Source: Candidatus Nomurabacteria bacterium (lineage in GTDB: Bacteria > Patescibacteriota > Minisyncoccia > Phycocordibacterales > UBA5272). Taken from it: 64,000 nt of DNA. Positions within the stretch are counted from its first letter, which is position 1; every line of letters begins with the position of its first letter. The translations under genes were made by a program, and so were the position numbers. The notes under the pieces are model-generated. The model ran no database searches, was not told the origin of the DNA, and worked only from the letters and a program-made list of their open reading frames with translations. Where the stretch lies: NCBI GenBank assembly GCA_037130925.1, contig JBAXSC010000003.1, forward strand, positions 18,712-82,711. Reading direction: 5' to 3'. Positions 3,183 through 49,943 of the stretch are shown here, piece after piece.

Positions 3183-3200
3183 TCATTTAAAAATGGTTTA

Positions 3201-4545: not shown

Positions 4546-4602
4546 GACTAAGTATTTTTTTGACAAGTGTAAAGTAAAATTGTAAGGCTTTAATAATAAA
4601 TT

Positions 4603-4631
4603 ATCAGTTTGTCAAATAACTGATTTTTTTA
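4603..4631 (+). terminator. Intrinsic terminator of uvrC
   Basis: ATCAGTT / AACTGAT stem with an 8-nt loop, followed by T7. Confidence 0.7.
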
Positions 4632-4744
4632 TTTTAGATTTTAAAAATAATGGCAAAAAGTGTTGTAAGATAGAATAATGGAAAGTCTGTTTGTTTTTGC
4701 TCACCCAAGCTTTTTAATTTATTAGCTTTAATTAAAATAAATTT

Positions 4745-6094
4745 ATGAGTCCTTTTTTAAATACAAATTTAAAATACGTCAAAAAAAGAGATGAAAATCT
4801 TCAAAAATTTGATATTGAAAAAATAGCCAATGCGATATATAAAGCAATGACTTCTATTGATGCGGGCAGTGTAGAGGAGGCGAATAAAGTTGCAGAAAAA
4901 GTTGCTACATCTTTAGAGAATAAAATTCTAAAAGCAAAGCAAGATGAATCAGAAAATAAATCTGGTGAAATAGATAAAAAAATAATTGATTTAGTAAATG
5001 GTACTGTATGTATCGAGGATCTTCAAGATATAGTTGAGGAGTCTTTGATGTCATCAGAATATCACAATGTTGCAAAAGCATATATTCTTTATAGAGAGAA
5101 AAGGGCAGAATTAAGAAAGAGGGATATTTTTCAGAAAAGAGTAAATTTAAAGCCATACGAATATCCAGAATTATATGAATATGTGAGTGCTATTAGGCAT
5201 TCGTATTGGGTACATACAGAATTTAATTTTGTAAAAGATGTACAAGATTTTAAAGTTAATGTGAGTGATATTGAAAGAAGTGCTATAAAAAATTCTATGC
5301 TTGCTATTGCGCAAATAGAAGTGGCGGTAAAAACTTTCTGGGGTGATATTTATAAAAAGATGCCTAAATCGGAAATTGGTGCAGTAGGCGCAACTTTTGC
5401 AGAAAGTGAAGTTAGACATACAGATGCATATTCTCATCTTTTAGAGATTCTCGGACTCAATGAAGAATTTTTAAAAATTAAAGAGATACCAGCCCTTATA
5501 GATAGAGTAAAATATTTAGATAAAAGTATTGCAAATGCGAGAAGTGAAGATAATAAAGATTATGCACAATCTATCTTACTGTTCTCATTATTTATCGAGC
5601 ATGTATCATTATTTTCTCAATTTTTAATTATGATGTCTTTCAATAAGAGAAAATCTCTTTTTGCGGGAATATCAAATGCTGTAGAGGCGACATCTAAAGA
5701 AGAACAAATACATGGACTTTTTGGAATAGATTTGATTAATATAATAAGATCAGAGCATCCAGAATGGTTTGATGAAGAATATAATAATACTATTATTAAT
5801 GCTTGTCGTGAAGCGTACGAATCAGAAAAAGGAGTGGTTGATTGGATATTGGAGGCAGGGGAATTAGATTTTCTTTCAAAGAGTACAATACTAGAATTCA
5901 TAAAAAATAGATTTAATAATTCTTTAGAGAGTATTGGCTTACCAAGAATATTTGAAGTTGATAAAGTTATTTTAGAAGAAACAAATTGGTTTAATGATGA
6001 AGTGATCGTAACAAAACATGTAGACTTTTTCCAAAAGAAATCTATAAACTATAACAAGCGCAGTCAAAGTTTTAGTGGAGAGGATTTGTTTTAA
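4745..6094 (+). CDS. nrdB: Ribonucleotide reductase small subunit with N-terminal ATP-cone
   Basis: ATP-cone (VKKRDENLQKFDIEKIANAIYKA ... VAKAYILYREKRAELRK) fused to an R2 ferritin-like core (ESEVRHTDAYSHLLE, EEQIHGLFG). Confidence 0.85.
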   Translation: MSPFLNTNLKYVKKRDENLQKFDIEKIANAIYKAMTSIDAGSVEEANKVAEKVATSLENKILKAKQDESENKSGEIDKKIIDLVNGTVCIEDLQDIVEESLMSSEYHNVAKAYILYREKRAELRKRDIFQKRVNLKPYEYPELYEYVSAIRHSYWVHTEFNFVKDVQDFKVNVSDIERSAIKNSMLAIAQIEVAVKTFWGDIYKKMPKSEIGAVGATFAESEVRHTDAYSHLLEILGLNEEFLKIKEIPALIDRVKYLDKSIANARSEDNKDYAQSILLFSLFIEHVSLFSQFLIMMSFNKRKSLFAGISNAVEATSKEEQIHGLFGIDLINIIRSEHPEWFDEEYNNTIINACREAYESEKGVVDWILEAGELDFLSKSTILEFIKNRFNNSLESIGLPRIFEVDKVILEETNWFNDEVIVTKHVDFFQKKSINYNKRSQSFSGEDLF

Positions 6095-6127
6095 AGATTA
6101 TTAAAAATATAAATTAAAAATAATATT

Positions 6128-7891
6128 ATGTATTGGTTAAATGATTATAGTAGAAAATTTTTAACAAAAGATTATCTATTACCAGGTGTCACAGCGGAAG
6201 AAAGAATTAAACAAATATCCGAATACGCAGAAACTCTTTTAAAGAAAGAAGGATTTGCTAAAAAATTCTATGACTATATGTCTAAAGGGTATTACTCTTT
6301 ATCTACGCCTGTATGGCTCAATTTTGGCTTAAATAGAGGCCTTCCTATTAGTTGTTTTGGTTCTTATGTTGGAGATGATATGGGACAAATTCTTTTTACT
6401 CTTTCTGAAATTGGAACAATGACAAAGCTTGGTGGAGGAACGTCTGCATATTTTGGTGAAGTAAGACCAAGAGGCGCAAAAATAAAAGATAATGGTCATT
6501 CTTCTGGGTCTGTTCACTTTATGCAAATGTTTGATACTGTTACAAATATTATTTCTCAAGGATCTGCAAGAAGGGGGCATGTTGCACTTTATTTACCAAT
6601 TGATCATTCTGATATAGAAGAATTTTTAAATATAGGTACAGAAGGAGATAAAATTCAAGAGTCTACATATGCTGTGACAGTACCTGATTATTGGTTCAAA
6701 GAAATGATAGCTGGAGACGTTGCCAAAAGAAATATTTGGGCGAAAGTATTACAAAGAAGAAGTCAAATAGGATATCCTTATATTCTTTTTTCTGATACTG
6801 TAAACAATAATACTGTTGACGTATATAAAGATAAAAATCTAAAAATCCACGCAAGTAATTTATGTAGTGAAATTTTATTACCAAGTAATGAGAGATGGTC
6901 TTTTGTTTGTTGTTTATCCTCTTTAAATCTTTTCCACTATGATGAAATTAAAAATACAGACGCTGTAGAGACAATGGTAGAATTTTTAGATGCAGTGATA
7001 GAAGATTTTATTGTTAAACTAGAAACAAAAAGAGATAATGGGGATGCTAGAGATATACAGTCATTCTTATTTATGGAGAGATCATATAATTTTGCTAAAG
7101 AAAATAGAGCTCTTGGTCTCGGTGTGCTAGGTTGGCATTCTCTTTTACAAAGTAAAATGATTCCATTTGAAAGTAAAGAGGCAAAAGATTTAAATATAGA
7201 AATCTTTAAATTTATAAATGAGAAAGCTCACTCTTCTTCAAAGAAATTAGCAGAAGTTTATGGCGAGCCTGAAATATTAAAAGGATATGGAAGAAGAAAT
7301 ACAACTTTGTTAGCTATTGCTCCAACTACTTCATCTTCATTTATTCTTGGGCAAGTATCACAAGGAATTGAGCCGTCTTTCTCAAATTGTTTTGTGAAAG
7401 ATTTAGAAAAAATAAAAATAACATTTAGAAATAAATTCTTAGAAAAAATATTAATAGAGAAAAATAAAAACACAGATGATGTTTGGAGAAATATTTTAGA
7501 AAATGACGGATCTGTCAGACATTTATATTTCTTATCTGATGAAGAAAAAGCAGTATTTAAAACATTTCCAGAAATAGATCAGAATGCGATAATTGAACAA
7601 GCTGCAGATAGACAAAAATATATCGATCAGGGACAATCTTTAAATCTAATGGTTGATCCGTCAATGCCAGCAAAAGAAATAAATGGTCTTTACATTAAAG
7701 CTTGGGAGAGTGGAGTGAAGACGCTTTACTATCAGCACAGTATGAATGCGGCTCAACAATTTGGTAGAAAAAAAGCTCAAGATCAAAGTGAGAAATTACA
7801 AACTGCAAATAATGAAAAAGAAGAAACTAAAGCTAAATTAAACATAATAAAAAACGATGAAGAAACAGCTTGTCTTTCTTGTGAAGCTTAA
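6128..7891 (+). CDS. nrdA: Ribonucleotide reductase large subunit (no ATP-cone)
   Basis: 587 aa; active-site ASNLCSEILLP, C-terminal redox pair CLSCEA; starts directly in the catalytic barrel region. Confidence 0.85.
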   Translation: MYWLNDYSRKFLTKDYLLPGVTAEERIKQISEYAETLLKKEGFAKKFYDYMSKGYYSLSTPVWLNFGLNRGLPISCFGSYVGDDMGQILFTLSEIGTMTKLGGGTSAYFGEVRPRGAKIKDNGHSSGSVHFMQMFDTVTNIISQGSARRGHVALYLPIDHSDIEEFLNIGTEGDKIQESTYAVTVPDYWFKEMIAGDVAKRNIWAKVLQRRSQIGYPYILFSDTVNNNTVDVYKDKNLKIHASNLCSEILLPSNERWSFVCCLSSLNLFHYDEIKNTDAVETMVEFLDAVIEDFIVKLETKRDNGDARDIQSFLFMERSYNFAKENRALGLGVLGWHSLLQSKMIPFESKEAKDLNIEIFKFINEKAHSSSKKLAEVYGEPEILKGYGRRNTTLLAIAPTTSSSFILGQVSQGIEPSFSNCFVKDLEKIKITFRNKFLEKILIEKNKNTDDVWRNILENDGSVRHLYFLSDEEKAVFKTFPEIDQNAIIEQAADRQKYIDQGQSLNLMVDPSMPAKEINGLYIKAWESGVKTLYYQHSMNAAQQFGRKKAQDQSEKLQTANNEKEETKAKLNIIKNDEETACLSCEA

Positions 7892-7902
7892 TAAATAAAA
7901 AT

Positions 7903-8289
7903 ATGGAAGAATATGTAAAAAAGTTTTTATTAAATGCTGAGTCAAAAGCTCTAGCGACTTTCGGTGATGAAATAAATGTCGTACCTGTGTCTTCTATAAA
8001 AATAGAAGGAGATGAGATTTGGCTGGTTGATTATTTTATGAAAAAAACTAAAGAAAATATTTTAAAAAATAAAAATGTATCTTTAGTTGCTTGGACTGGA
8101 TTATTTGGATATCAAATAAAAGGTGAAATGAATTATGAGACAGAAGGTGAGAAATTTGAAAAAGCAGTCTCATGGATAAGTGAAATTTTACCAGAAAGAA
8201 AAGTAAAAGGTATTTTAATCTTAAAACCAAAAGAAGTATTCGATATAGCGCCAACTAAAAATACTAAAGAAGAATTTAAATTAAAATAA
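7903..8289 (+). CDS. Pyridoxamine 5'-phosphate oxidase-like FMN-binding split-barrel protein
   Basis: 128 aa, LATFGDEINVVPVSS ... NILKNKNVSLVAW pattern typical of the PNPOx-like family; starts 12 nt after nrdA. Confidence 0.5.
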   Translation: MEEYVKKFLLNAESKALATFGDEINVVPVSSIKIEGDEIWLVDYFMKKTKENILKNKNVSLVAWTGLFGYQIKGEMNYETEGEKFEKAVSWISEILPERKVKGILILKPKEVFDIAPTKNTKEEFKLK

Positions 8290-8311
8290 ATTTAAAATAG
8301 TCTACAAGTCT

Positions 8312-8322
8312 TATGATATAAT
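8312..8322 (+). promoter_or_regulatory. Extended -10 promoter, TATGATATAAT
   Basis: 11-mer located 17 nt upstream of the ATG at 8339. Confidence 0.6.
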
Positions 8323-8338
8323 TTAATTAATAATATTT

Positions 8339-9346: not shown

Positions 9347-9388
9347 AACAAAACCTCGTATTTTTACGAGGTTTTGTTTTTTTATTTT
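9345..9388 (+). terminator. Intrinsic terminator
   Basis: 15-bp stem AAAACAAAACCTCGT / ACGAGGTTTTGTTTT followed by a T-run. Confidence 0.8.
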
Positions 9389-9407
9389 GCCTCTATTTTT
9401 AATAGTA

Positions 9408-9436
9408 TTGACATTTATATATTAATATGCTAAGAT
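9408..9436 (+). promoter_or_regulatory. Sigma70-type promoter
   Basis: TTGACA (9408-9413), 17-nt spacer, TGcTAAGAT (-10 at 9431-9436). Confidence 0.65.
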
Positions 9437-9501
9437 ATATATAGGTTGGGATTAAGTTTATTCCGACAAAAAATTATTTTAAAACGTTAAATTTGTTAAA
9501 G

Positions 9502-9825
9502 ATGAAAAAAGTATCTTCTGGATCTATTCAAGTATTTTTATTAGTTATTTTATTTTTTTGTTATATTATTTTTGTTTGTATTCCTGGTATTAAACATATT
9601 TATGAGGTAAAACAAAAAGCTGTAATTTTATCCTTAATACCAAAAACAGATGTAAGATACACCCACTTAACTAGGTATCAATTACTTTTTAGGGTTAAAT
9701 TTTTGAAAACTGGAAAAGTGTGTGATGCTACGTATTCTATGAAATACACAACAACGATTGTTAATAATAAAGATACTGTTATTATTGATACTGATAATAA
9801 TGAAATCTTGTGTAAGAAAGAATAA
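9502..9825 (+). CDS. Small membrane protein
   Basis: First ATG at 9502 (the track start at 9493 is TTG); N-terminal helix IQVFLLVILFFCYIIFVCI. Confidence 0.45.
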   Translation: MKKVSSGSIQVFLLVILFFCYIIFVCIPGIKHIYEVKQKAVILSLIPKTDVRYTHLTRYQLLFRVKFLKTGKVCDATYSMKYTTTIVNNKDTVIIDTDNNEILCKKE

Positions 9826-9841
9826 TCTACTCTTATTGTAG

Positions 9842-9872
9842 AAAAGTCCCGGATTTAAATCTGGGACTTTTT
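9842..9872. terminator. Bidirectional terminator between convergent genes
   Basis: AAAAGTCCCGG / CTGGGACTTTT hairpin flanked by A- and T-runs. Confidence 0.75.
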
Positions 9873-9875
9873 ATT

Positions 9876-10601
9876 TTAACTTATTTTTATATCCAAAGTC
9901 TTTAATAATTTTTCTACTTCATCTTTTGTTAATTCTTTCATTGTTCCGGATTTTTGACTTCCTAATTTTAAGAATAAAAATCTTACTCTTTTTAATGAAG
10001 AAATAGTTAGATTGAGAGCGTTGAGCATTCTTCTAATCTCGTGTTTCTTTCCTTCTGTTAAAGTAATTTTAATTACGTTTTTATTATCTTCATTAATTTC
10101 AACTTTTTTAGCAGGAGCGTAAATTTCCTCTCTTGTTGTTATTCCTTTTTCTAACAAAGTTTTTACTCTTGGTGTAGCATTTTCTCTCACAGTGACGAGA
10201 TATTCTCTCTCAAATTCATTTTTAGGATTTAATAATTTATCTATTATTCTAAAGTCATTACTATAAATTAAGAGTCCTTCACTTTCTTTATCGAGTCTTC
10301 CTACCGGATCAAGTCTGATACCATCTTTTTCTTTAAAAGCAGTCTCTTCTCCACGTTTTTTATTGTATATAAAATATTTCAAAGTTTCTAGTTTTTGATT
10401 TACGAATACAGAATCTTTATCTTTTACTTTATCTCCAAGTATAGCAATTTTATCATTGATATGGATTTTCTTTTCTGAAATTAATTTATCAGCTTCACGA
10501 CGAGAAAGAACTCCTGATTCGCTCAAGTATTTATTTATTCTCATTTCTTCATTTGGTTTTAGAGTTACTTTTAGTTTCATATTTTTAAAAATTATTTTCA
10601 T
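9876..10601 (-). CDS. Pseudouridine synthase, RsuA/RluB family
   Basis: S4 domain (RINKYLSESGVLSRREADKLI) plus catalytic GRLDKESEGLL motif. Confidence 0.85.
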   Translation of the reverse strand: MKIIFKNMKLKVTLKPNEEMRINKYLSESGVLSRREADKLISEKKIHINDKIAILGDKVKDKDSVFVNQKLETLKYFIYNKKRGEETAFKEKDGIRLDPVGRLDKESEGLLIYSNDFRIIDKLLNPKNEFEREYLVTVRENATPRVKTLLEKGITTREEIYAPAKKVEINEDNKNVIKITLTEGKKHEIRRMLNALNLTISSLKRVRFLFLKLGSQKSGTMKELTKDEVEKLLKTLDIKIS

Positions 10602-11898
10602 TAAATTTCATCCATGCTTTTTCTGCTGTCTTTTCTTTTTTAATTTCTTCTTTTTCTATTTTCTCGTTTATTTCTTTATTTTTAGATTTCATTTCTTCTT
10701 TTAGCTTATTTTTAGCTTCTGTATCTTGTATCTTTAATATAGAAAATATGGCTAAAAATCCTATTAATCCAACTATTAGAAACATTACATTTAAATCTAT
10801 ACTAAAAAAATTAATAAGTAAAGCCCCGATAATAGAAACGAAGAGAAATCCTATATTAGACATGTTTTGAAATAGGGCTATTAACCCAGCACTACTGCCA
10901 TCTATTTTTTTGTAGAAGTAAGCATAATTCTCTGTTTCTGTGATAGTTGCACCTAATCTTGCTAAGAATAAGATAAGTATCCAAACAAAAATATTATTAG
11001 TTGTAATATTAAATAAATATATTGAAACAAGCATAAGACTTGTTAAGAAAATACCAAATAACATTGCTTTCTTTTCTCCAAAAATCTGATCAGAGTATTT
11101 TCCTAGTTCATAAGGAATGAGAATAAAAGGTATTACAGAAATAGGAGTGATTATTCCTAAATATAATAATACAGGTATTCCTAGATTATGAGTTAAATAA
11201 AGAACTAAATAAATATTTATAACAGCATAAAAAGAATTTAAAGCAAAAGAAGATGAGATGACCCCTCTAATGTTTATATCTTTTTTAATTATTTTTAAAT
11301 CTTTAAAAAGATTTATATGTTTATATTTTGGCTCTATTACATGATTAAAAAATCTATGTGTAAGATAAAATAATGGTAACAAAGTTAAGCTACTTAAAAG
11401 AAATATTCCAGTATATCCGATAAGGTTAAAAAATTGTGCCGCTACAAAAGGTGCTGTAATAGCTCCAAAGTTATAAAGGGTTAAAACTGTTCCTCTAATA
11501 GATCCAATATTTTCATGATCAGAAAATTCTTCTATAAAAATATTTATCGATACCCATATAATAGTGACTAAAATTATATGAAGTACAGATAATAATATTA
11601 TAAAAAATAAATTAAAATTATGAGCAAAGATTAAAGCTAAAGTAGAAAAGAACTGCAGCCCTATTACAAACATTAAGCTTTTATAATTTGTAAATTTTTT
11701 AAGAATATCTCCAAAAAAATTGGATAATATTATAGATATTAATGCACTACCTGCAAATATCATAGACAAAGCTATTTGGCTAAAATATTGACTCAAGAAA
11801 TCAGAAAATAAAAAATATACTAAGAAATAATGAAATGCAAAAAATACGGTTGCAACATAGGCTATACTTAATAGTCTTTTTTTTAATCCGTTATCCAT
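10585..11898 (-). CDS. MFS-type transporter with KE-rich C-terminal tail
   Basis: 437 aa, about 12 hydrophobic helices in a 6+6 layout. Confidence 0.6.
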   Translation of the reverse strand: MDNGLKKRLLSIAYVATVFFAFHYFLVYFLFSDFLSQYFSQIALSMIFAGSALISIILSNFFGDILKKFTNYKSLMFVIGLQFFSTLALIFAHNFNLFFIILLSVLHIILVTIIWVSINIFIEEFSDHENIGSIRGTVLTLYNFGAITAPFVAAQFFNLIGYTGIFLLSSLTLLPLFYLTHRFFNHVIEPKYKHINLFKDLKIIKKDINIRGVISSSFALNSFYAVINIYLVLYLTHNLGIPVLLYLGIITPISVIPFILIPYELGKYSDQIFGEKKAMLFGIFLTSLMLVSIYLFNITTNNIFVWILILFLARLGATITETENYAYFYKKIDGSSAGLIALFQNMSNIGFLFVSIIGALLINFFSIDLNVMFLIVGLIGFLAIFSILKIQDTEAKNKLKEEMKSKNKEINEKIEKEEIKKEKTAEKAWMKFNENNF

Positions 11899-30567: not shown

Positions 30568-31041
30568 ATGAAATTTCAAATCATTACAATCGGTAAAAAA
30601 CATGATAAAAATCTAGAAGATTTTATTCAAGACTTTGAAAAGAGAATCAAAGCTAATTTTGATTTTGAATGGTCTATTTTAAAAAGTGAAGATGATAATA
30701 ATAAAGAAGTGCAGATCAAAAAAGAAAGTGAAAAGATTTTGGAATTTTTACAAAAGAATAATAAAAATAGTTTTGTGATTTTGCTTGATGAAAAAGGTAA
30801 AGAAAAAACCACAAAAGAAATTTCAAATCTTTTTGAAGAAAAAATGAATGAAGGAATAGAGAAGATTATTTTTATAATTGGTGGAGCTTTTGGTGTGTCA
30901 GAAGACATTTTTAAAAAAGGGGATTTGGTTTTAGGTTTGTCTAAGTTAACCCTTCCTCATCAATTGGTCCGTGCATTATTAACTGAGCAAATATATAGGG
31001 CTATTTCTATTTTAAAAAATGGAAAATATCATCATGAATAA
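30568..31041 (+). CDS. rlmH: 23S rRNA (pseudouridine1915-N3)-methyltransferase
   Basis: 157-aa SPOUT fold, IFIIGGAFGVSEDI ... LSKLTLPHQLVRALLTEQIYRA. Confidence 0.85.
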   Translation: MKFQIITIGKKHDKNLEDFIQDFEKRIKANFDFEWSILKSEDDNNKEVQIKKESEKILEFLQKNNKNSFVILLDEKGKEKTTKEISNLFEEKMNEGIEKIIFIIGGAFGVSEDIFKKGDLVLGLSKLTLPHQLVRALLTEQIYRAISILKNGKYHHE

Positions 31042-31065
31042 TAGTCTTGATTTTAGTTTTTATTG

Positions 31066-31074
31066 TGATAGTAT
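31066..31074 (+). promoter_or_regulatory. Extended -10 promoter, TGATAGTAT
   Basis: Part of the 17-mer ATTGTGATAGTATTTAT (31062-31078) that is repeated at 31475-31491. Confidence 0.5.
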
Positions 31075-31119
31075 TTATTAGGTATCTTATTTTATTTTAC
31101 ATTTTTAAATTTTAAAAAC

Positions 31120-31437: not shown

Positions 31438-31459
31438 ATTATATATAAAAATAATATAT

Positions 31460-31487
31460 TTGACACAATTATTAATTGTGATAGTAT
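31460..31487 (+). promoter_or_regulatory. Sigma70-type promoter
   Basis: TTGACA (31460-31465), 16-nt spacer, TGaTAGTAT (-10 at 31482-31487). Confidence 0.6.
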
Positions 31488-31530
31488 TTATCTGTTAACA
31501 AAATTTGTTCATTCATAAATATTATTAAAA

Positions 31531-33248: not shown

Positions 33249-33725
33249 TTACCAATTTTTAAATGGATTTTCTATAAGCTTCGCATTTTTATATCTACTG
33301 TCATAAGTAACTTCCTCTCCTAGCCATTCAGGTTTTTCAAAATTTTCATCTTCTGATTTTAATTCTATTTCTGCTATAATCAAGCCTTCATTTTCTTCAT
33401 GAAAAATATCTATTTCCCATTTTTGTTCAGAATTTTTGATTGGGACTATGTATCTTGTTTTAGATATTATTTTATTATCACAAAATTCAGATAAAAATAT
33501 TTTTCCATCATTTAATGGAATCTCATATTCAAATTCTGAATGAGAAAAAGAGTTTTTATTTCCGCCTTTAATAGTCAGGAAAGCCTTATCTGAAGAAGTT
33601 CGTACTCGTATTGTTTTGTTTTTATCATTATTTAAATATCCTTGTGTATATAAAGTTTCTTTAGTTGTAAACTTTTTCCAGTTGTTATTCTTTAAAAGAA
33701 ATTTTCTTTCTATTTCTAAATTCAT
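33249..33725 (-). CDS. CYTH-domain protein (CyaB/ThTPase-type triphosphate tunnel metalloenzyme)
   Basis: N-terminal MNLEIERKFLL (the EXEXK signature) and a 158-aa beta-tunnel-sized product. Confidence 0.8.
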   Translation of the reverse strand: MNLEIERKFLLKNNNWKKFTTKETLYTQGYLNNDKNKTIRVRTSSDKAFLTIKGGNKNSFSHSEFEYEIPLNDGKIFLSEFCDNKIISKTRYIVPIKNSEQKWEIDIFHEENEGLIIAEIELKSEDENFEKPEWLGEEVTYDSRYKNAKLIENPFKNW

Positions 33726-33730: not shown

Positions 33731-33739
33731 TGTGGGCGA
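33731..33739. repeat. Left copy of the 9-bp att core TGTGGGCGA
   Basis: Identical to 40672-40680 (antisense of the tRNA-Val 3' end); lies 5 nt from the CYTH start codon. Confidence 0.55.
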
Positions 33740-33943
33740 AATGGTTTTTGATTGGAACATTATGGAAATGGAGATTTTAAGATGGAAAAGGATTTTATCT
33801 TTTCATCCAAAGAGATTAAAAGTCTTAAATATATCAATAAAAAGTAATAATTCTTGATATTTTATTCTACGATTAAGTAATAGAAATATAAGAGTTAGAA
33901 AAAGAATGTATCATTTTTTAAATGATTTTATATATTTTGTTAT

Positions 33944-33973
33944 GTGACATATTAATGATTAATATGGTATAAT
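33944..33973 (+). promoter_or_regulatory. Strong promoter of the structured RNA
   Basis: GTGACA, 18-nt spacer, TGgTATAAT (-10 at 33968-33973). Confidence 0.65.
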
Positions 33974-33979
33974 CATTGT

Positions 33980-34122
33980 GCCCAAAAACCAAATAATGAA
34001 GATAGTATAAGAGCTTAATAGCTAGCTATTGATTCTGACCAGTATAGGCATTCTATGAGGAACAGAATCAGTAGTCTATCTATTGGTTTTTGGGCACCTT
34101 ATGGGGTGCCTGTTTTGTTTTT
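33980..34122 (+). ncRNA. Candidate structured RNA of unknown class (stand-alone sRNA or cis-regulatory leader)
   Basis: 15-bp perfect closing helix (33978-33992 / 34083-34097). It encloses the palindromic hairpin AATAGCTAGCTATT (34017-34030). It also encloses an 8-bp helix (34030-34037 / 34063-34070) with a nested 5-bp hairpin. A GC-rich terminator follows immediately. Confidence 0.5.
34092..34122 (+). terminator. Intrinsic terminator overlapping the 3' arm of the RNA closing helix
   Basis: GGCACC (34093-34098) pairs with GGTGCC (34105-34110), 6-nt loop, then TGTTTTGTTTTT. Confidence 0.75.
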
Positions 34123-34165
34123 ATACAGAGCACTATTTATTCAAATAAATTTTAATATTAAAAAT

Positions 34166-34489
34166 ATGGACATAGATGGTATATCAAACTTTCTGGTAGG
34201 TATTGTAATTTTTATTTTGGTTTTAGGTCTTTACTTTTTACCAACTATAACAGCTATGCGTCGTAAAAAGAAAAATGATGGTGTTATTTTGCTTATAAAT
34301 CTTTTGGTTGGTTGGACCGTTGTTGGTTGGTTGATTGCTTTAGTTATGGCAACTAGTGAACCGTCAGTAGTTGTTAATACTTCAGGGAGTATGGCTGATG
34401 AGTTAGAAAAACTTCATAATTTAAAAGAGAAAGGAATTTTGTCAGAGAAAGAATTTGAGCAAAAGAAAGCGTCACTTATTAATAAGTAA
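34166..34489 (+). CDS. Superinfection-immunity (T4 Imm-like) membrane protein with C-terminal SHOCT domain
   Basis: Start moved to the ATG at 34166 because the upstream part of the track ORF is the RNA structure. YFLPTITAMRRKKKNDGVILLINLLVGWTVVGWLIALVMA matches the Imm_superinfect pattern. ELEKLHNLKEKGILSEKEFEQKKASLI is SHOCT-like. Confidence 0.7.
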   Translation: MDIDGISNFLVGIVIFILVLGLYFLPTITAMRRKKKNDGVILLINLLVGWTVVGWLIALVMATSEPSVVVNTSGSMADELEKLHNLKEKGILSEKEFEQKKASLINK

Positions 34490-34493
34490 TTGT

Positions 34494-35441
34494 ATGTATT
34501 TATTAAGATTAAATAAAATTCAAGTATATATTAAAGTTTTACTTATAATCTTTCTGTTTCCTCTTTTATTTTTATTTCCATTAGGGACTATAATATATAT
34601 TTTGCTTTTAATAATATTCACATCTAACAAATTTTGTGTCTCTATTGATAGTTTTTTAGAGGATAAAATTTATTCTTCTGGCTTCTTTAAAAAAAGTAAA
34701 GGAATCAATATTTATAAAGAAACATTAATAAATTATTTAGAAGATGGAGAATTGTCTAGTGAAGAAAAAGAAAAATTAAATAATATTATTCAAGAATATA
34801 ATTTATCTGATAAGGATATTGAAAAATGTAAAAATATTGGTTTTAATTCATTTTTTACAAATATAACTTCCGATAGAAGAATAAGTGAAGATGAAAGATT
34901 AAAACTTATAAAAATCCAAGAGGATTTAGGGGTAAATATAGAGGATACAAATTACAGTCAGGAAATTTTTAATAAATATTACTCACTAAATCAGATAGAG
35001 GATGGAATATTACCTAAAGTTAATATTGAAAATAGTCAATTAGGTTTTTCTTTACAAAAAGGCGAAGAACTTTATTATGTAAGTAGGGCTTTTATTATAA
35101 AAAATAAATTAATTACACAAAGAATTAATTATAGCGGAATGACTGGTTCTATAAAAATAATGAAAGGGCTCAGATATAAGGTTGGAAGTATAAAAGTTCA
35201 GCCGGTAAAAATAGAGACTTTAGCAGTAGAAGATAGTGGTGTTATTTATTTATCCTCTTCAGGTTTCCATTATTTAGGAATTAAAAAACATTTTGATTTT
35301 CCTTATACAAAAATAAGTCACTTAGAGATAAGAGATGGAGTATTATATTTATATAAACAAGGTAAAGAAGCTCCTTTTATGATTTCTATGAGTGATTATG
35401 AAGTATCTTTGGCGGTAATTTCTTTCATGTTGAATAAATAG
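34494..35441 (+). CDS. Membrane protein with TerB-like helical repeats and C-terminal bacterial PH-like domain
   Basis: First ATG is 5 nt after the upstream stop. Two N-terminal TM helices. Repeats DGELSSEEKEKLNNIIQEYNLSDKDIEK and RISEDERLKLIKIQEDLGVNIED. C-terminal beta-rich segment GVIYLSSSGFHYLG...ISHLEIRDGVLYLYKQG. Confidence 0.4.
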   Translation: MYLLRLNKIQVYIKVLLIIFLFPLLFLFPLGTIIYILLLIIFTSNKFCVSIDSFLEDKIYSSGFFKKSKGINIYKETLINYLEDGELSSEEKEKLNNIIQEYNLSDKDIEKCKNIGFNSFFTNITSDRRISEDERLKLIKIQEDLGVNIEDTNYSQEIFNKYYSLNQIEDGILPKVNIENSQLGFSLQKGEELYYVSRAFIIKNKLITQRINYSGMTGSIKIMKGLRYKVGSIKVQPVKIETLAVEDSGVIYLSSSGFHYLGIKKHFDFPYTKISHLEIRDGVLYLYKQGKEAPFMISMSDYEVSLAVISFMLNK

Positions 35442-35500
35442 TATTTAGTTATTATTTGTATTTTAAATTTAAGTATATTAATCACTGTATTTTTTTATTA

Positions 35501-35530
35501 TTGCTCATATTTTTTGAATTATGATATAAT
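35501..35530 (+). promoter_or_regulatory. Promoter of the protease cassette
   Basis: TTGCTC, 18-nt spacer, TATGATATAAT (35520-35530), the same 11-mer used by chromosomal genes. Confidence 0.6.
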
Positions 35531-35548
35531 CTTTTCATAGTATATTTT

Positions 35549-36292
35549 ATGATGGATTTTTCTAAAGTTGTTGAAAAGATAAAACCAAGTATAGCTTTTA
35601 TAATAACTGGAAACGGCACTGGTTCTGGTTTTGTTTTTCAAAAAAAAGGAATATTAATAACGTGTAATCATGTGGTAGAAGGAAATCAATTTGTTTCAAT
35701 ACGTTTTCCAGATATTGATAATTTTATTCATGCTGAAGTTGTTTTGAGAGACAATGAACATGATTTAGCAATTTTAAAGTTTCAAGATGATTCAAGACAT
35801 CCTTTATCTGTGTGTGAAGTTTCTAATATAAAAGAAGGTATGCCTGTTATATTTTCAGGATATCCTTTAGATTTGCAGGTTTTAACAACACATCAGGGTA
35901 TATTGTCTTCTATATCTAAAGACCAGACAGGGAAGACAAATTATCTTATTGATGGAACTGTTAATTCTGGAAATAGTGGATGTCCTTTAATGGATAAAAA
36001 TGGTGATGTTGTAGGTATTGTAAATGCTAAAAATATAGGACAATTTAGTGGTAGTGATTTATTTAATAAAGTTAAATCTATGTCTTCTGGACTTGTATCT
36101 ATATCAGGAGTTGATATATCAATGATATTAAAAATATTATCTAGTAATACCCAAATGGGTATAGGTTATGCAGTTCCGGTAAGTTATGTTCCAGAACATA
36201 AAGATGTTAGTGATATACTGGTTGAAAAAGTTGTTATTGAAGATGACGGGAAGAAAGATGTGAAAGATAAAACAAAAATAATTAAATTATAA
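35549..36292 (+). CDS. Cytoplasmic trypsin-like (S1/DegP-type) serine protease, no signal peptide, no PDZ
   Basis: Catalytic triad contexts ITCNHVVEG (His), NEHDLAILKF (Asp), GNSGCPLMDKNGDVVGIV (Ser). Confidence 0.8.
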   Translation: MMDFSKVVEKIKPSIAFIITGNGTGSGFVFQKKGILITCNHVVEGNQFVSIRFPDIDNFIHAEVVLRDNEHDLAILKFQDDSRHPLSVCEVSNIKEGMPVIFSGYPLDLQVLTTHQGILSSISKDQTGKTNYLIDGTVNSGNSGCPLMDKNGDVVGIVNAKNIGQFSGSDLFNKVKSMSSGLVSISGVDISMILKILSSNTQMGIGYAVPVSYVPEHKDVSDILVEKVVIEDDGKKDVKDKTKIIKL

Positions 36293-36297
36293 AAAAT

Positions 36298-36615
36298 ATG
36301 AACAATAAAAACAATTATACTTTTATATTTAAATCAGATGGAAGATATCTTGGATTTGTATTTGAAAATAATCTTTTTTCTAGAGATGGTGAATATCTTG
36401 GTTGGATAGAAGGTAATTTTGCTTGGGATAAAAATGGAAATTTTCGCGGAATAACAAATGAGATAAATGGACATATTTATATTTTTATAAATAAATTTAG
36501 TATTCCTCCAATTAAAAGAATTCCTAAATTGGATAATATTATACCTGTGATACCTCCTCCACAACAAAATATTTTACCAATTAGATTGCAAATAGAATTC
36601 CAAGACGGTTTTTAA
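36298..36615 (+). CDS. Small beta-repeat protein with Pro-rich tail
   Basis: Three DG-x-Y/F-x-G-like repeats (SDGRYLGFVFENNLF / SRDGEYLGWIEGNFAW / DKNGNFRGITNEINGHIY), then IPPIKRIPKLDNIIPVIPPPQQNILP; starts 5 nt after the protease stop. Confidence 0.45.
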   Translation: MNNKNNYTFIFKSDGRYLGFVFENNLFSRDGEYLGWIEGNFAWDKNGNFRGITNEINGHIYIFINKFSIPPIKRIPKLDNIIPVIPPPQQNILPIRLQIEFQDGF

Positions 36616-36662
36616 TAACTAATTATTGATTTTTAAATTATAAGAGCTATATTAAATTATAT

Positions 36663-37187
36663 ATGCTCGAAGAGAATAATGTAAATACACAATTAGATAA
36701 TTATAATGGTGGTCCTAAAACAGAAGAGGGTAAAATTATCAGTAGTCAAAACTCTAAAACTCATGGAATATTTTCTTCTGAATTTTTATCTCAAGAAGAA
36801 GAGGAAGAGTTTGATTTTATATTTAAAGGAATATTAGAAGACTACAATATTCAAGAAGGGACCGCTCAAGCTATATTGGCTCTAAATCTGACTATGTCTT
36901 TTATAACATTAAGAAGAATAAATAAAGTAGAAGCTAATATTTTAGAAGATGAGCTTTCTAATAATCAATCTAAAAGTGATTTAAATCTAGCTAAATTAAA
37001 TTTACTAGCTAGATATAAAGTATCAGCCGAGAATGGTGTTTATAAGGTTTTGGCGATAATTAAAAATGTTGGTGATGATGTTAGGAATAGCAGGTTCGAA
37101 GCTTCTCTAAGGGCAAATTCTAGCCTTATACGTGATATTATGGGGGATAAATTCTTCTCTAGGAATAATAAAAAAATGGTTATATAA
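36663..37187 (+). CDS. Hypothetical protein
   Basis: 174 aa; N-terminal GGPKTEEGKIISSQNSKTHGIFS motif, acidic stretch, helical remainder. Confidence 0.4.
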   Translation: MLEENNVNTQLDNYNGGPKTEEGKIISSQNSKTHGIFSSEFLSQEEEEEFDFIFKGILEDYNIQEGTAQAILALNLTMSFITLRRINKVEANILEDELSNNQSKSDLNLAKLNLLARYKVSAENGVYKVLAIIKNVGDDVRNSRFEASLRANSSLIRDIMGDKFFSRNNKKMVI

Positions 37188-37217
37188 TATTCATATTACA
37201 AAACGAACTTAAAACCT

Positions 37218-38066
37218 ATGAGGAAGCTAAATATAAAAGACTACGCATACATTTCAAAGTTATATTCTGAAATAAAAAATACATTGAAATCTAAAAATAA
37301 TATTAATTTAGTAGAAAAATTATCTTTAGTTGTTAATTTTTGTGTTCTCTTAGAAAAATTAATAAAATTAAGACTCTCAGTAGAAAATAAGTTATTGGTT
37401 TATTATGGTAAAAGTTTTAATGATGATTTTATATTTGGGATTTTGAAAGATAAAATTCCTCCAACAAGCTTTGAAGCAAAAACTAAGACTTTTAATGAAG
37501 CAAATAATTTGTTTAATAAATTATTTGATGTTTTTTCTGAGAATGAAATATTATTGCTCGATAATATATACAATATAAGAAACGCTATTGTTCATAGTTA
37601 TTTTCAAGATAATAAAATATTAGATAGTGAGGAGAACATAATAAAAGATATTTCTACAATTTTAGATAAAGTTAACTCATTACTTGAAGAAATGTTTGGA
37701 AAAGAGGCTATAGCTTCAATAAAAATTGGAGGAGAAGAAAAGTATTCTAAAGAAGAGTTGGAAGAGGTATTGAGAGAACAGGTTAGAAAAAAGATTTTAT
37801 ATGGAAGAAATAAAAGGACTAATTATTTTTTTGATAAGCTTTCTATGATTAAAACAGAAGAATATAGTTTTCCAAATAATGGACTATCATGTCCAGCCTG
37901 TGGAAATTATTCACTAGAAGGAAAGGATATTGAAAATAATTTTTATCCAATAGCTGTATCAGTTTTTAATTATAAAGATAAAGATATTTACATATGTTCA
38001 AAATGCGGCCTTCAATTAACTAAAAGGGAATACGAAATCGCTAAAGAAATTAAATTTAATATTTAA
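37218..38066 (+). CDS. HEPN-like (Rx4H) protein with C-terminal CxxC...CxxC zinc ribbon
   Basis: All-alpha N-terminal 160 aa with NIYNIRNAIVHSYF (R-x4-H); C-terminus LSCPACGN ... YICSKCGLQL. Confidence 0.55.
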   Translation: MRKLNIKDYAYISKLYSEIKNTLKSKNNINLVEKLSLVVNFCVLLEKLIKLRLSVENKLLVYYGKSFNDDFIFGILKDKIPPTSFEAKTKTFNEANNLFNKLFDVFSENEILLLDNIYNIRNAIVHSYFQDNKILDSEENIIKDISTILDKVNSLLEEMFGKEAIASIKIGGEEKYSKEELEEVLREQVRKKILYGRNKRTNYFFDKLSMIKTEEYSFPNNGLSCPACGNYSLEGKDIENNFYPIAVSVFNYKDKDIYICSKCGLQLTKREYEIAKEIKFNI

Positions 38067-38071
38067 AAACT

Positions 38072-38707
38072 ATGATTAGAAAAAATCATTTTAGTCCTAT
38101 ACTAGATAATACTTTATCTAATCTTATAGACATGTTGGAAGTTCTGATTTCTTATTCAGAGAAATATCAAATTGAAGATAGAGAACTAAAAAGAAAAATA
38201 GATGGACTGTATATAGATATTTTGTGGTCCGCTAGAAAATTAGATTCTAGTTTAGATTATCCAGATACTATATTTGGAAATAAAGATTTAGTAGTTAAAA
38301 AGAAACATCAAGATATCAAAATATATGATGATAATTATAGAAAATCAATTCAAAACTTTATTAAGACAGTTTCAGAACTACCTATAAAGTCAAAGAATTT
38401 ATTTTTAATTGAAGTTGAAATTGACACAAAGGCAGGTGTAATCAAAAGATTAGATAATGGAAATATTTGTAAATTTAGAAGTCATAAAAATAGTAATAGA
38501 TTTAGTTTTATTACTAAAATAGCAAAAGGTTATTCTAAAGGTAAAAGTTTGGCAGAAAAATTACCTTACCTAAGTAAGGATATTAAAATAATTAATGAAA
38601 GATTATCTAAAGATTTAAACTTAGTTGATAAGTTTATAATTAATGACACTAAAAAACAAACAGGTTATCATTTAAATGATAACTTCTATAAAGTTAAATT
38701 GATATAG
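38072..38707 (+). CDS. Hypothetical protein (possible C-terminal DNA-binding helix region)
   Basis: 211 aa, starts 5 nt after the HEPN gene; no confident motif. Confidence 0.4.
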   Translation: MIRKNHFSPILDNTLSNLIDMLEVLISYSEKYQIEDRELKRKIDGLYIDILWSARKLDSSLDYPDTIFGNKDLVVKKKHQDIKIYDDNYRKSIQNFIKTVSELPIKSKNLFLIEVEIDTKAGVIKRLDNGNICKFRSHKNSNRFSFITKIAKGYSKGKSLAEKLPYLSKDIKIINERLSKDLNLVDKFIINDTKKQTGYHLNDNFYKVKLI

Positions 38708-38708
38708 T

Positions 38709-38768
38709 TAACCTTAATTCTTGCAATGTGAGTATTTTCTAATCTTGTAAAATAAGGTTATTTTTTCT
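38709..38768 (+). terminator. Possible terminator / large-loop hairpin at the end of the cassette
   Basis: TAACCTTA (38709-38716) pairs with TAAGGTTA (38753-38760), then T6; GTTAACCT is repeated at 38707 and 38774. Confidence 0.35.
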
Positions 38769-38824
38769 ATTGGGTTAACCTAAAACCAATTATATTTTTT
38801 CTTATAAAAATCTAAAATGTTCTT

Positions 38825-38974
38825 ATGACATTAGAAGAGTTTAAAGAAAAAATATTAGGCGAAGATATTAAAAATATGTCTAATAAAGACATAGAAGACA
38901 GATATAAATTTCATTTGAATTTTTTTAATACTGCTTTTAAAAAATGGAAATATAATAAATCTAAAATGATATAA
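38825..38974 (+). CDS. Small ORF upstream of the recombinase (candidate accessory/directionality factor)
   Basis: 49 codons, MTLEEFKEKILGEDIKNMSNKDIEDRYKFHLNFFNTAFKKWKYNKSKMI; ends 10 nt before the recombinase ATG; below the ORF-track length cut-off. Confidence 0.25.
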   Translation: MTLEEFKEKILGEDIKNMSNKDIEDRYKFHLNFFNTAFKKWKYNKSKMI

Positions 38975-38983
38975 TGGAAATAT

Positions 38984-40720
38984 ATGGAATCTCTTATTTA
39001 TGTTATTGGTTATGCTAGAGTTAGTAGTGTTGACCAAGCTAGAGGTAATGACAGCTTAGAGAATCAAGAATTTAGTATTAGAGAATACTGTAAACGAAAA
39101 GGATATATTCTATTTGAAGACAAAGTTTTTAAGGAAGCATTTACTGGGAGTAATACTTTTCGTCCCGCATATACAAAAATAAAAGAAATTTTACAAAGTA
39201 TTAATAATGGAAAGATTAAAAAAATAAAATATTTAATTTTTTATGATTTTGATAGATTAACAAGAGGTGGTTCAGATGAATACGAAAAGATATGGTCAGA
39301 GATGGAGACTTTCAGTGTTGAATTAAGAGATACAAAAGATGAAATAATTAAAGAGGATAGAGACTTAATGAAAGAAGAATTTGGTTTCGATTATAGTTTT
39401 TCTTGGGCAAAAGGAAGACCTAGTGAGGATATGGAAAAACAGAGAACTGAAGAAGCAAAGCGGGATAAAAAGAGAATTTTACAGAAATTAATTTTTTCAG
39501 AAATAAGATTAACTCAAAATGGTTATCAGATTGGTAAACCGGACTATGGTTTCAGAAACAAAAAGATTCTAGCTGGAACGAAAGAAAGATTTGTTCAGTC
39601 TCCTTATGAAGATGAAGCTAAGTTTGTTATTGAAATGTTTAATCTTAGAGCTGAAGGGGTTTTCTCAGATAATGAAATTTGCGACAAAATAAATGCTATG
39701 GGTTATAAGAGTGCTAGAAGAAAAAAATGGAGTAAGGACCAGCAAAATATTATTGGTTATACAGGTAGTGTTAAGTTAAAACCAAAAGAATTACAAAATT
39801 TTATAAAAAGAACTTCATATTGTGGAATTATTTGTAAGAAATGGACAAAATATATACCGATAAAAGCAAAATGGGAAGGTATAGTATCGATAGATTTATG
39901 GAATAGAGCAAACAGGGGAAAATTCTTTTTGGAGCAAGATGATAAAGATAAAGAATCTTTCATGTTGCTTAAAAATATAAATCCTAATTTTTCAAAAAAG
40001 AAACAAAAATATAATCCTAGTTTTAAATATAGAGGTATAGTTTGTTGCGATGTATGTGGCAATCAGATGACAGCTAGTTTTTCGCAAGGTAAAAGTGGTA
40101 AAAAGTTTCCTTTTTATCATTGTTCTAAAAATCATAAACAGTTTAGTAAGACTAAAAAAGAAGTTGAAGATATTATTGATAGCACTATTAATAGTATTTC
40201 TTTCAAAGAAAACTTTATTAAAGAACTTACAAAATCTCTAGAGTTTCAGTTTCAAGAACAAGAGAAAAATTTAGCAAAGTTTACTTCAGAGACAAATATT
40301 AATGTTAGTAATTTAGAAATTGAGAAATCTAAATTATTTGAAGCTTATATTAATGAGCAAGATGAATTTATTAAAAATGAAATAAGAGAAAGATTTAAAA
40401 GAAAAGAAGAGGAAATAGTGAAAGCTAGAAATGAAAGAAATAAAGCAGAGCTTGAAGAAGATGATGTGACTAACTTTTTAAGATTTGCTAAAGAATTAAT
40501 GGAACACCCAGAAAAAACCTTTGAAGATATTGATTCTAAAGAAGAATTACTTAGTGTTTTTAGTCTGTTTGTAGAAGACCTCCCAAGATACTCTGATTTT
40601 ATAAATGGAACACTAAATTTAACTAAATTTTTCAAGCTTAATAAGGAATTCAGTGATAATAAAAACTATTCTGTGGGCGATACAGGATTCGAACCTGTGA
40701 CATCTACAACGTCAATGTAG
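38984..40720 (+). CDS. Large serine recombinase (integrase)
   Basis: N-terminal resolvase domain VIGYARVSSVDQA (catalytic Ser). Recombinase domain, zinc ribbon CCDVCGN...FYHCSKNH, and a coiled coil. The last 47 nt overlap tRNA-Val antisense. Confidence 0.9.
   Translation: MESLIYVIGYARVSSVDQARGNDSLENQEFSIREYCKRKGYILFEDKVFKEAFTGSNTFRPAYTKIKEILQSINNGKIKKIKYLIFYDFDRLTRGGSDEYEKIWSEMETFSVELRDTKDEIIKEDRDLMKEEFGFDYSFSWAKGRPSEDMEKQRTEEAKRDKKRILQKLIFSEIRLTQNGYQIGKPDYGFRNKKILAGTKERFVQSPYEDEAKFVIEMFNLRAEGVFSDNEICDKINAMGYKSARRKKWSKDQQNIIGYTGSVKLKPKELQNFIKRTSYCGIICKKWTKYIPIKAKWEGIVSIDLWNRANRGKFFLEQDDKDKESFMLLKNINPNFSKKKQKYNPSFKYRGIVCCDVCGNQMTASFSQGKSGKKFPFYHCSKNHKQFSKTKKEVEDIIDSTINSISFKENFIKELTKSLEFQFQEQEKNLAKFTSETNINVSNLEIEKSKLFEAYINEQDEFIKNEIRERFKRKEEEIVKARNERNKAELEEDDVTNFLRFAKELMEHPEKTFEDIDSKEELLSVFSLFVEDLPRYSDFINGTLNLTKFFKLNKEFSDNKNYSVGDTGFEPVTSTTSM
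40672..40680. repeat. Right copy of the 9-bp att core TGTGGGCGA
   Basis: Antisense of tRNA-Val positions 67-73 plus 2 trailer nt; identical to 33731-33739. Confidence 0.55.
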
Positions 40721-40746
40721 CGCTCTACCAACTGAGCTAACCGCCC
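40674..40746 (-). tRNA. tRNA-Val (anticodon GAC)
   Basis: Minus strand: GGGCGGT-TA-GCTC-AGTTGGT-AGAGC-G-CTACA-TTGACGT-TGTAG-ATGTC-ACAGG-TTCGAAT-CCTGT-ATCGCCC-A. Perfect cloverleaf, no encoded CCA. Confidence 0.9.
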
Positions 40747-49744: not shown

Positions 49745-49834
49745 GGAGACGTGTCAGAGTGGTCTAACGTACCTCTTTGCTAAAGAGGCAGGGTGTCAAA
49801 GCCCTCGGAGGTTCGAATCCTCTCGTCTCCGCCA
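49745..49834 (+). tRNA. tRNA-Ser (anticodon GCU), type II, CCA encoded
   Basis: GGAGACG ... CCTCT-TTGCTAA-AGAGG, long variable arm, GGAGG-TTCGAAT-CCTCT, CGTCTCC-G-CCA; the D-stem is weak (only 1 of 3 Watson-Crick pairs by my fold). Confidence 0.8.
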
Positions 49835-49849
49835 CGTTTTTTAATAAAA

Positions 49850-49936
49850 GGAGAATTGGATGAGTGGCTTAAATCAGCGGTTTACTAAACCGCCGAACCT
49901 TTACCGGTTCCGTGAGTTCGAATCTCACATTCTCCG
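49850..49936 (+). tRNA. Type II Ser-like tRNA with anticodon ACU
   Basis: GGAGAAT-TG-GAT-GAGTGGCTTAA-ATC-A-GCGGT-TTACTAA-ACCGC, variable arm GAACC/GGTTC, GTGAG-TTCGAAT-CTCAC, ATTCTCC-G. Anticodon at 49884-49886. No encoded CCA. Confidence 0.7.
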
Positions 49937-49943
49937 CAAAAAT

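Follow-up and report, generated by a model that had tools for sequence, protein, structure and literature searches.

Evidence for an attachment site inside the 3′ end of a large serine recombinase gene in a small integrative element of Patescibacteria

We analysed 64,000 nucleotides of a Candidatus Nomurabacteria bacterium (assembly GCA_037130925.1, contig JBAXSC010000003.1, positions 18,712 to 82,711 of the forward strand; this whole stretch is called the window). This Patescibacteria (candidate phyla radiation, CPR) genome carries an integrative element of 6.9 kb (33731-40680), inserted at the extreme 3′ end of a tRNA-Val gene, in its discriminator and acceptor end. The last gene of the element encodes a large serine recombinase (LSR). 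Comparison of sequences strongly supports that the attachment site of the element, attP, sits within the 3′ end of the LSR gene and that the crossover falls in the codon of Val564. Integration leaves the last 39 codons 6.9 kb away at the left attachment site (attL), where they cannot be translated, and the gene reads 13 codons of antisense tRNA instead. The initial annotation of this DNA had proposed that attP lies inside the recombinase gene and that the excised and integrated forms encode proteins with different C-termini. Homologues, conserved tails, a junction found in a related element and the mapped core all agree with this. To the whole explanation, the architecture together with the role of the tail proposed below, we assign a probability of roughly 0.85.

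The core and the two forms of the recombinase

The element, its borders and the predicted recombination sites are as follows.

33249..33725, - strand: CYTH-domain gene of the chromosomal left flank (Pfam CYTH, 1.5e-14)
33731..33739, + strand: attL core TGTGGGCGA, one of the two copies in the window, with the probable crossover dinucleotide GT at 33732-33733
33740..33857, + strand: tail-coding segment, which in the excised form supplies the final 39 codons of the recombinase (E566-S604, stop at 33855-33857)
33858..38983, + strand: cargo, with a predicted promoter, a putative structured leader and seven listed protein genes
38984..40720, + strand: LSR gene in its integrated (hybrid) form, 578 amino acids (aa), of which residues 1-565 are encoded by the element
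40672..40680, + strand: core TGTGGGCGA of the right attachment site (attR), encoding S(V564)G(D), antisense of the tRNA-Val 3′ acceptor strand and discriminator
40681..40720, + strand: hybrid tail codons from tRNA-Val antisense, ..TGFEPVTSTTSM and then the stop, including TCGAAC at 40689-40694
40673..40746, - strand: tRNA-Val(GAC), the integration target (B′ side of the chromosomal site attB), called by ARAGORN; Rfam tRNA 70.6 bits
Predicted attP junction sequence: AAAACTATTCTGTGGGCGAAATGGTTTTTGATTGGAAC
Predicted empty attB sequence: TTCATATATTTGTGGGCGATACAGGATTCGAACC

The 9-mer TGTGGGCGA occurs exactly twice in the 64 kb, both times on the + strand, against an expectation of 0.07, and two or more copies were seen in 0 of 100 shuffles. 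Eight open reading frames (ORFs) lie between the two cores, all on the + strand, with the LSR as the last. The final 48 nt of the LSR ORF overlap the 3′ part of tRNA-Val(GAC) in antisense, and the core regenerates the 3′ end of the tRNA gene and so keeps the gene complete. On the left side of the core, including the CYTH side, there is no resemblance to the LSR 3′ end. Before insertion the CYTH gene sat immediately downstream of tRNA-Val on the same strand.

In the integrated state the LSR ORF has 578 aa, and past the core it reads D TGFEPVTSTTSM for 13 codons, ending with the stop at 40718-40720. When the frame is continued from the core into 33740, the ORF has 604 aa and reads E MVFDWNIMEMEILRWKRILSFHPKRLKVLNISIKSNNS for 39 codons up to the TGA at 33855-33857. 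The crossover dinucleotide is probably the GT of the Val564 codon. The tail-coding segment has no functional start of its own. The ORF, the core, both tails and both stops were confirmed at the positions first reported for them. An open frame of this length had been estimated to arise by chance in a few percent of cases, and computation gave P of about 0.03 from shuffled local sequence and 0.05 from the frequency of stop triplets. A hidden Markov model (HMM) of the tail, built without the window sequence, had a sole match among 2310 six-frame fragments of the window, which was this tail fragment (E=7.7e-8). When the HMM was limited to the part that follows the Trp-Asn (W-N) pair of the tail, the window fragment was still ranked at the top (E=3.1e-4).

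The sequence, fold and attachment sites of the enzyme are those of large serine recombinases. Pfam detected Resolvase (5.5e-13) and Recombinase (6.8e-9), with Zn_ribbon_recom at 22.4 bits, just below its cut-off. R12, V13, S14, Q18, R91 and R94 are invariant across 48 homologues, and the zinc-ribbon residues C355, C358, H379 and C380 are also invariant. The top Foldseek matches were the SPbeta, Bxb1 and phiC31 integrases (9dxd, 9iu2 and 9rah). The AlphaFold2 (AF2) model, made with 32 excised-form sequences, has a mean predicted local distance difference test score (pLDDT) of 83. It contains long antiparallel helices at 409-457 and 461-484, which match the coiled coil inserted in the zinc ribbon, and a family-specific helical domain at 492-555. 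A linker of low confidence (pLDDT <50) occupies 560-568, where the core lies, and leads into a helix at 571-587, with mean pLDDT over blocks of ten residues of 84 (571-580) and 79 (581-590). The predicted tail helix W571-F587 would be amphipathic, with a hydrophobic face of W571/M574/I578/W581/L585 read from the sequence.

Related elements and conservation of the tail

A protein search returned 82 homologues, chiefly from Patescibacteria metagenome bins and mostly of about 569 aa. The C-termini of the majority (..LVTLRGIEPRLQE, ..VTPRRVELRLPA, ..VGDRGVEPLTSTTSM and similar) are tRNA T-arms read antisense in a constant frame. A minority have tails in which W-N stands exactly seven residues past the conserved Val, for example P0050 (..LLVHLSSLSWNTIEEMVLYWKTL), and the reconstructed tail of the window, VGEMVFDWNIMEMEILRWKRIL, has W-N at the same spacing. 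In an exhaustive profile search about 180 family members carried the anchor motif, with about 30 W-N tails and at least 100 tRNA-antisense tails. Homologues that all end before the core would have spoken against the initial annotation; those with antisense tails instead run into the tRNA in one fixed frame (..G-(I/V/F)-E-P..), and the others carry the W-N tail. W571 is invariant both in 14 excised-form sequences, where N572 is invariant too, and in a set of 32, where N572 is conserved in at least 90%. The neighbours of the W-N-tailed genes resemble those of plasmids or integrative and conjugative elements (relaxase, type IV coupling protein (T4CP), ArdC and primase). IMG/VR held no close relatives and only distant matches to the catalytic domain, and these elements are not catalogued as viruses. 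A circularity check of one W-N-tailed contig, L021, found no terminal overlap.

The loci of relatives came from genome and metagenome scans with an 18-sequence alignment, which produced 13 loci where the LSR gene is complete or almost complete and has flanks. A scan of genome contigs with the single LSR protein found no relatives, a 48-sequence alignment was too diverse to yield patterns, and a profile of the C-terminal region, used in a word-indexed protein search, matched five short C-terminal fragments only. The far ends of the elements were located by the tail HMM and a core search anchored in register. A search for the longest repeat near the tRNA end was rejected; it recovered the true far end only in one locus, L002, and missed the 9-mer of the window behind AT-rich 10-mers.

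Nine relatives were reconstructed from Patescibacteria metagenome-assembled genomes (MAGs) and metagenomes. Their LSR identity is 38-50%, their targets are tRNA-Glu, tRNA-Gly and one non-tRNA site, and the elements measure 4.0-10.6 kb. The LSR 3′ end overlaps the tRNA 3′ end in antisense in all seven distinct loci with a called tRNA (tRNA-Glu in six, tRNA-Gly in one), and no tRNA was called at the LSR 3′ end of L006 and L013. The tail HMM found a tail fragment upstream of the LSR and on the same strand in 12 of 14 loci; in one of the exceptions the contig stops short of the far end. In the window and the nine loci, the LSR end and the upstream site are identical over only 4-9 bp, and this block always includes the same Val codon, GTG or GTA. 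The cores are GTGA, GTGCG, GGTGA, TGGTGA, GTGAGC, TTGGTGA, TTGGTAG and TGTGGGCGA. Joined ORFs have 591-604 aa (604 in the window, 591-598 in the nine relatives), compared with 563-580 aa in the integrated state. The restored tails share the motif V-x6-W-N-(T/S/I)-x-E-x-E-(I/V)-(L/I)-(R/K)-W-K-x-(I/L/V)-(F/L)-x-x-(Y/H)-P-(N/S/K)-R-L.., and the frame 33740-33857 is conserved as protein across the nine independently reconstructed elements. Each integrated copy, in all 10 loci, keeps an intact LSR ORF and an intact but untranslated tail segment, and about 26-40 of the last residues are exchanged.

A junction of the circular type is present in public data. In L002, a contig of a MAG labelled as Saccharibacteria, positions 3011-7348 are 100% identical to 7344-11681 over 4338 bp, with a period of 4333 bp and the overlap GGTGA. 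The internal junction of this perfect tandem is attP, and the LSR gene that runs across it (5668..7455) is intact and encodes 595 aa with a W-N tail. The outer LSR copy (10001..11716, 571 aa) ends in tRNA-Glu. Either the element may truly have integrated in tandem, or the assembler may have joined circular and integrated forms that were present together. L001 contains the same element in a single copy. In L013, an element (7209-11683) with 93-99% nucleotide identity to that of L001 and L002 lies between unrelated flanks, and on either side the identity ends at the core. The tail-coding segment is therefore the start of the mobile unit, whose end falls within the LSR ORF. No tRNA is detectable at the insertion site of L013, which has AGAAC at the attB register and resembles a pseudo-attB. 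Comparing this one element between two unrelated locations places the crossover at the core, as had been proposed, and a 5-bp offset between the motifs of attP and attB does so too.

This offset was found in an alignment of attP and attB from nine reconstructions, anchored at the GT in the Val codon. On the tail side, the P′ arm holds a strongly conserved ..TAGAGTGGAACACC.. block. The identity of P′ and B′ arms has a single sharp peak of 0.51 at +5 nt, compared with 0.13-0.36 at other shifts. The left (P and B) arms gave no clear 5-bp offset signal, and inverted symmetry of attP was not clear. In attP, GAAC at +22..+25 from the crossover belongs to the W571-N572 codons TGG AAC (window 33753-33758, + strand); in attB, GAAC at +17..+20 belongs to the antisense T-loop sequence TCGAAC (window 40689-40694). 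In serine integrases, the motif bound by the zinc-ribbon domain (ZD) lies 5 bp nearer the centre in attB than in attP (Rutherford et al. 2013, PMC3783163). TGGAAC is the presumed ZD recognition motif of the P′ arm and would mimic the tRNA T-loop: on one side, the universal T-arm appears to be what the enzyme recognises, and a displaced copy of it appears to be present in attP. A displacement of 5 nt, which is not divisible by 3, shifts the reading frame, so that the motif is translated as I/V/F-E-P in the integrated form and as W-N in the excised form. The displacement also accounts for the single frame in which every integrated homologue enters the tRNA. On this alignment, the P half-site would be the last ~25-30 nt of coding sequence before the core, and the P′ half-site would be the first ~25 nt of the tail.

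The pattern of variation differs along the tail. In tail codons 2-9, third positions are the least variable (p-distance 0.26, versus 0.46 at first and 0.33 at second positions), which is a signature at the DNA level and fits the P′ half-site. In tail codons 10-27, which lie outside any attP of ~50 bp, third positions are the most variable (0.50, versus 0.36 at first and 0.29 at second positions). Over nine elements, with uncorrected distances and forward frames only, the ratio of nonsynonymous to synonymous differences (pN/pS) of the tail is 0.47-0.53 in the LSR frame. The two remaining forward frames give 0.83 and 1.02, and the 22 LSR codons ahead of the core give 0.65. These patterns indicate a dual-coded tail, in which the first ~9 codons are constrained as DNA and the remainder as protein. 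The tail can be translated only in the circular or tandem state, yet it is intact in every integrated copy. Selection therefore works through the joined state, and the elements must pass through this state regularly. Near-identical copies at unrelated sites also suggest such regular passage.

Several further observations were made on the related loci. In L017 (6033-11106) the W-N-tailed, excised-form LSR lies beside a CBASS-like pair (CD-NTase and Cap15), a NYN nuclease and a LexA-like repressor, and on its other side are a primase-like gene and a SymE toxin. L018 has a second tail-like fragment at ~20725 (+ strand; HMM E ~1e-8), 9 kb downstream of a W-N-tailed LSR, which may be the attL of a neighbouring element; this contig also carries ArdC and a TrwB-type coupling protein. 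The hybrid tail of L013, SVQQIELSWFV.., is also found in the database fragment P0086. In L003 (5878-5887 and 11666-11675), and also in L009, L010 and L012, the conserved Leu-Leu-Val codons of the LSR (CTG TTG GTG) give the tRNA its CCA end on integration. In L003, ..AC-AAA is the sequence of the native tRNA gene and ..AC-CAA that after integration; the element thus brings an encoded CCA that is absent from the empty site.

Possible consequences of the exchange of C-termini

LSRs catalyse integration by recombining attP with attB, and excision needs a directionality factor. We propose that the full-length protein of 604 aa would be the form that performs integration and that the tail would be a working part of it. 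The tail helix would probably dock on the family-specific C-terminal helical domain, near the zinc-ribbon and coiled-coil region that sets directionality, and the integrated gene would make an isoform that lacks this helix. We lean slightly towards an integrated isoform that is altered, with reduced or redirected activity. The choice between self-limitation and easier excision lies beyond what sequence decides.

Several points weigh against the proposal or against parts of its basis. LSRs are already unidirectional without a cofactor, and the exchange of tails is not needed to explain stable integration. Part of the conservation of the tail, including the invariant W-N, is explained by DNA recognition rather than by protein function, and the pN/pS contrast has the scope given above. 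Distant relatives, for example P0102 and P0151, have a short or weakly conserved stretch beyond W-N, and in them the tail may be dispensable. The docking of the tail helix is read from AF2 confidence values and not from coordinates. The tandem in L002 could be an artefact of assembly, in which case the junction would still exist but the tandem would be unproven. Exact look-ups of the flanking CYTH and SDR proteins found no empty attB site; they returned only the same occupied contig (an identical contig in SRR12676973) or nothing.

It is possible, though we do not favour it, that the arrangement is a neutral by-product of compaction, in which attP became embedded in the 3′ end of a gene in very small elements and both isoforms are equal, with no regulatory meaning. 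The exchange spares the catalytic, recombinase, zinc-ribbon and coiled-coil parts, which are all located before residue ~490. The linker around the core is disordered in the AF2 model, some distant relatives have short or divergent tails, and the conservation is partly at the DNA level. Neutrality does not easily account for the synonymous bias of codons 10-27 in the subfamily of the window or for the HMM match (E=3e-4), both of which lie beyond attP, nor for an amphipathic tail helix that is confidently predicted. We reject as highly improbable the reading that 33740-33857 is a remnant of a decayed second recombinase copy or older element, or that the 9-mer repeat arose by chance. The core is only 9 bp long and tandem copies occur, as in L002; but in the window and 8 further loci the Val codon marks the precise end of the similarity to the LSR, nothing upstream of attL is LSR-like, the comparison of L013 with L002 sets the left boundary of the mobile unit at the core, and the expected number of copies of the 9-mer speaks against chance.

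Two other readings give the exchange a definite effect. Self-inactivation, the 'suicidal' habit of SSV-type integrases, seems doubtful here; the hybrid would be inactive or unstable, and the element would be locked unless full-length enzyme were supplied in trans. In its favour, the integrated form accounts for most database copies, selection acts on the tail and should make its loss costly, and the SSV-type integrases provide a precedent (PMC7253208). However, all 10 loci retain intact LSR ORFs and intact untranslated tails, near-identical elements are found at unrelated sites in different genomes, and an attP junction accompanies the integrated form in L002. These facts suggest continuing excision or cycling by an element that encodes one recombinase only. 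A built-in directionality switch also appears unlikely. The tail would act in cis at the zinc-ribbon and coiled-coil hinge, the full-length form would favour integration, and the hybrid would excise without a separate recombination directionality factor (RDF). This reading draws on phiC31, whose integrase C-terminus is at the RDF-binding surface and gives an excisive synaptic complex when the RDF is fused there (10.1101/2025.05.02.651858). The smallest elements, of 4.0-4.3 kb, also fit it (L001 has three other small ORFs only and no recognisable RDF), as does the nature of the tail as an amphipathic helix with a heptad-like W/I/W/L face, and domain scans of the cargo ORFs in the window recognised no RDF. 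On the other side, RDFs are too diverse for one among the small ORFs to be excluded, and a prophage form constitutively prone to excision would be unstable unless its expression were controlled. If such a switch were true, DNA topology would select the isoform, and the same few bases would serve as T-loop mimic, ZD-binding site and W-N codons.

Cargo, known systems and significance

The cargo (34055-38707, + strand) looks defence-related. Its genes encode an Imm_superinfect/SHOCT protein, a 328-aa protein, a trypsin-like protease, a Bflower protein, a 174-aa protein, a Zn-ribbon/DUF3644-like protein and a 211-aa protein. The 328-aa protein has a weak match to PADLOC PDC-S48. The trypsin-like protease matches the protease part of PADLOC RT-Protease_XI (1e-21) and is next to the Bflower protein, and the DUF3644-like Zn-ribbon protein is the final recognisable cargo item. 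Inside the left end, after the tail stop, the region 33944-34112 (+ strand) has a strong sigma70-like promoter, GTGACA-18-TATAAT with TG (11/12). Downstream of the promoter is an RNA structure of ~120 nt with a long stem (33978-34097; minimum free energy -51.7 kcal/mol, z=-5.6), and a terminator-like hairpin lies at 34091-34112. The structured region has no match in Rfam and overlaps the mechanical start of the Imm_superinfect/SHOCT ORF; the region 33944-34112 may serve the cargo operon as a leader or as a small RNA. Elsewhere in the window, two adjacent tRNA-Ser genes are present at 49745-49937 (+ strand), the second called with the unusual anticodon ACT. A direct repeat of 60 nt with 70% identity (31037-31096 and 31450-31509; common block TTGTGATAGTATTTAT) lies ahead of a pair of short adjacent ORFs; a promoter or operator may have been duplicated there.

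Like the canonical LSRs (phiC31, Bxb1, Listeria A118/LI, SPbeta SprA and TP901-1), the enzyme has a catalytic domain, a recombinase domain and then a zinc ribbon with an inserted coiled coil, and its attP and attB share only a few bp around the central dinucleotide (cores of 4-9 bp at 10 loci, with a shared GT). The zinc-ribbon motif is 5 bp further out in attP, as in the canonical LSRs (PMC3783163), here on the tRNA-side arm only. Unlike them, this family has attP inside the coding sequence of the enzyme itself, so that integration alters the protein. It also targets tRNA 3′ ends and has a C-terminal helical domain and a W-N tail, and its elements are only 4-10 kb and reside in Patescibacteria. 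The attP within its own ORF and the targeting of tRNA 3′ ends set it apart from the described LSRs. The initial annotation knew of no LSR equivalent, and we likewise found no description of a serine recombinase with attP inside its own ORF in the literature searched, which is not proof of novelty.

In the SSV-type (type I, 'suicidal') archaeal tyrosine integrases, such as SSV1 and the pT26-2 family, the site lies within the integrase ORF, a tRNA gene is the target, and the gene is split by integration and restored by excision (PMC7253208). The comparison with these integrases, made from the start, is apt as an analogy: the att site is inside the integrase ORF, a tRNA gene is the target, and integration partitions the gene. 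It does not extend to the enzyme class or to the extent of the disruption. The enzyme of the present family is a serine and not a tyrosine recombinase, of unrelated fold and chemistry, and its host is a bacterium. The SSV-type split produces two inactive pseudogenes, whereas here the last ~6% is exchanged and the 563-580-aa ORF is predicted to keep all catalytic and DNA-binding domains.

In the integration-dependent immunity of the mycobacteriophages BPs and Brujita, attP lies in the repressor gene, and integration removes an ssrA-like C-terminal degradation tag that controls the fate of the protein (PMC3694055). As in the window, attP is in a gene of the element, and the free and integrated forms of the protein differ at the C-terminus. 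Unlike here, the gene that is crossed is the repressor and not the recombinase, and the integrase of BPs and Brujita is a tyrosine recombinase. The tail ends show no consistent tag: the window has ..IKSNNS, close relatives have ..LTNYE or ..ITKT, and a few distant ones have -IAA, -MAA or -RAA. In lambda int/sib retroregulation and at the junction promoter of Tn4451 TnpX, the circular or integrated state changes the neighbour of the recombinase gene and its expression. Lambda sib acts via a 3′ RNA processing site and Tn4451 via a 5′ joint promoter, and neither alters the coding sequence, unlike the exchange described here. A small serine recombinase, that of phiRSM, reportedly described by Askora et al. 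in 2011, is said to integrate at a tRNA gene. The phiRSM enzyme is resolvase-like, without the recombinase/zinc-ribbon module, and we know of no attP-in-ORF arrangement for it.

Serine integrases are central tools of genome engineering, and their directionality is an active structural question. The family offers a natural experiment, in which recombination rewrites the C-terminus of the enzyme in roughly 130 or more sequenced examples, and it bears on the role of the region after the coiled coil. It also contains LSRs that appear to target tRNA 3′ ends via a T-loop mimic in attP, a habit thought typical of tyrosine integrases. Gene callers take the protein to be the hybrid ORF and overlook its true C-terminus, and island finders that require the integrase gene inside the element will misplace the boundary. 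For Patescibacteria, a phylum whose mobile DNA is poorly known, our study describes a defined class of small mobile elements with exact ends.

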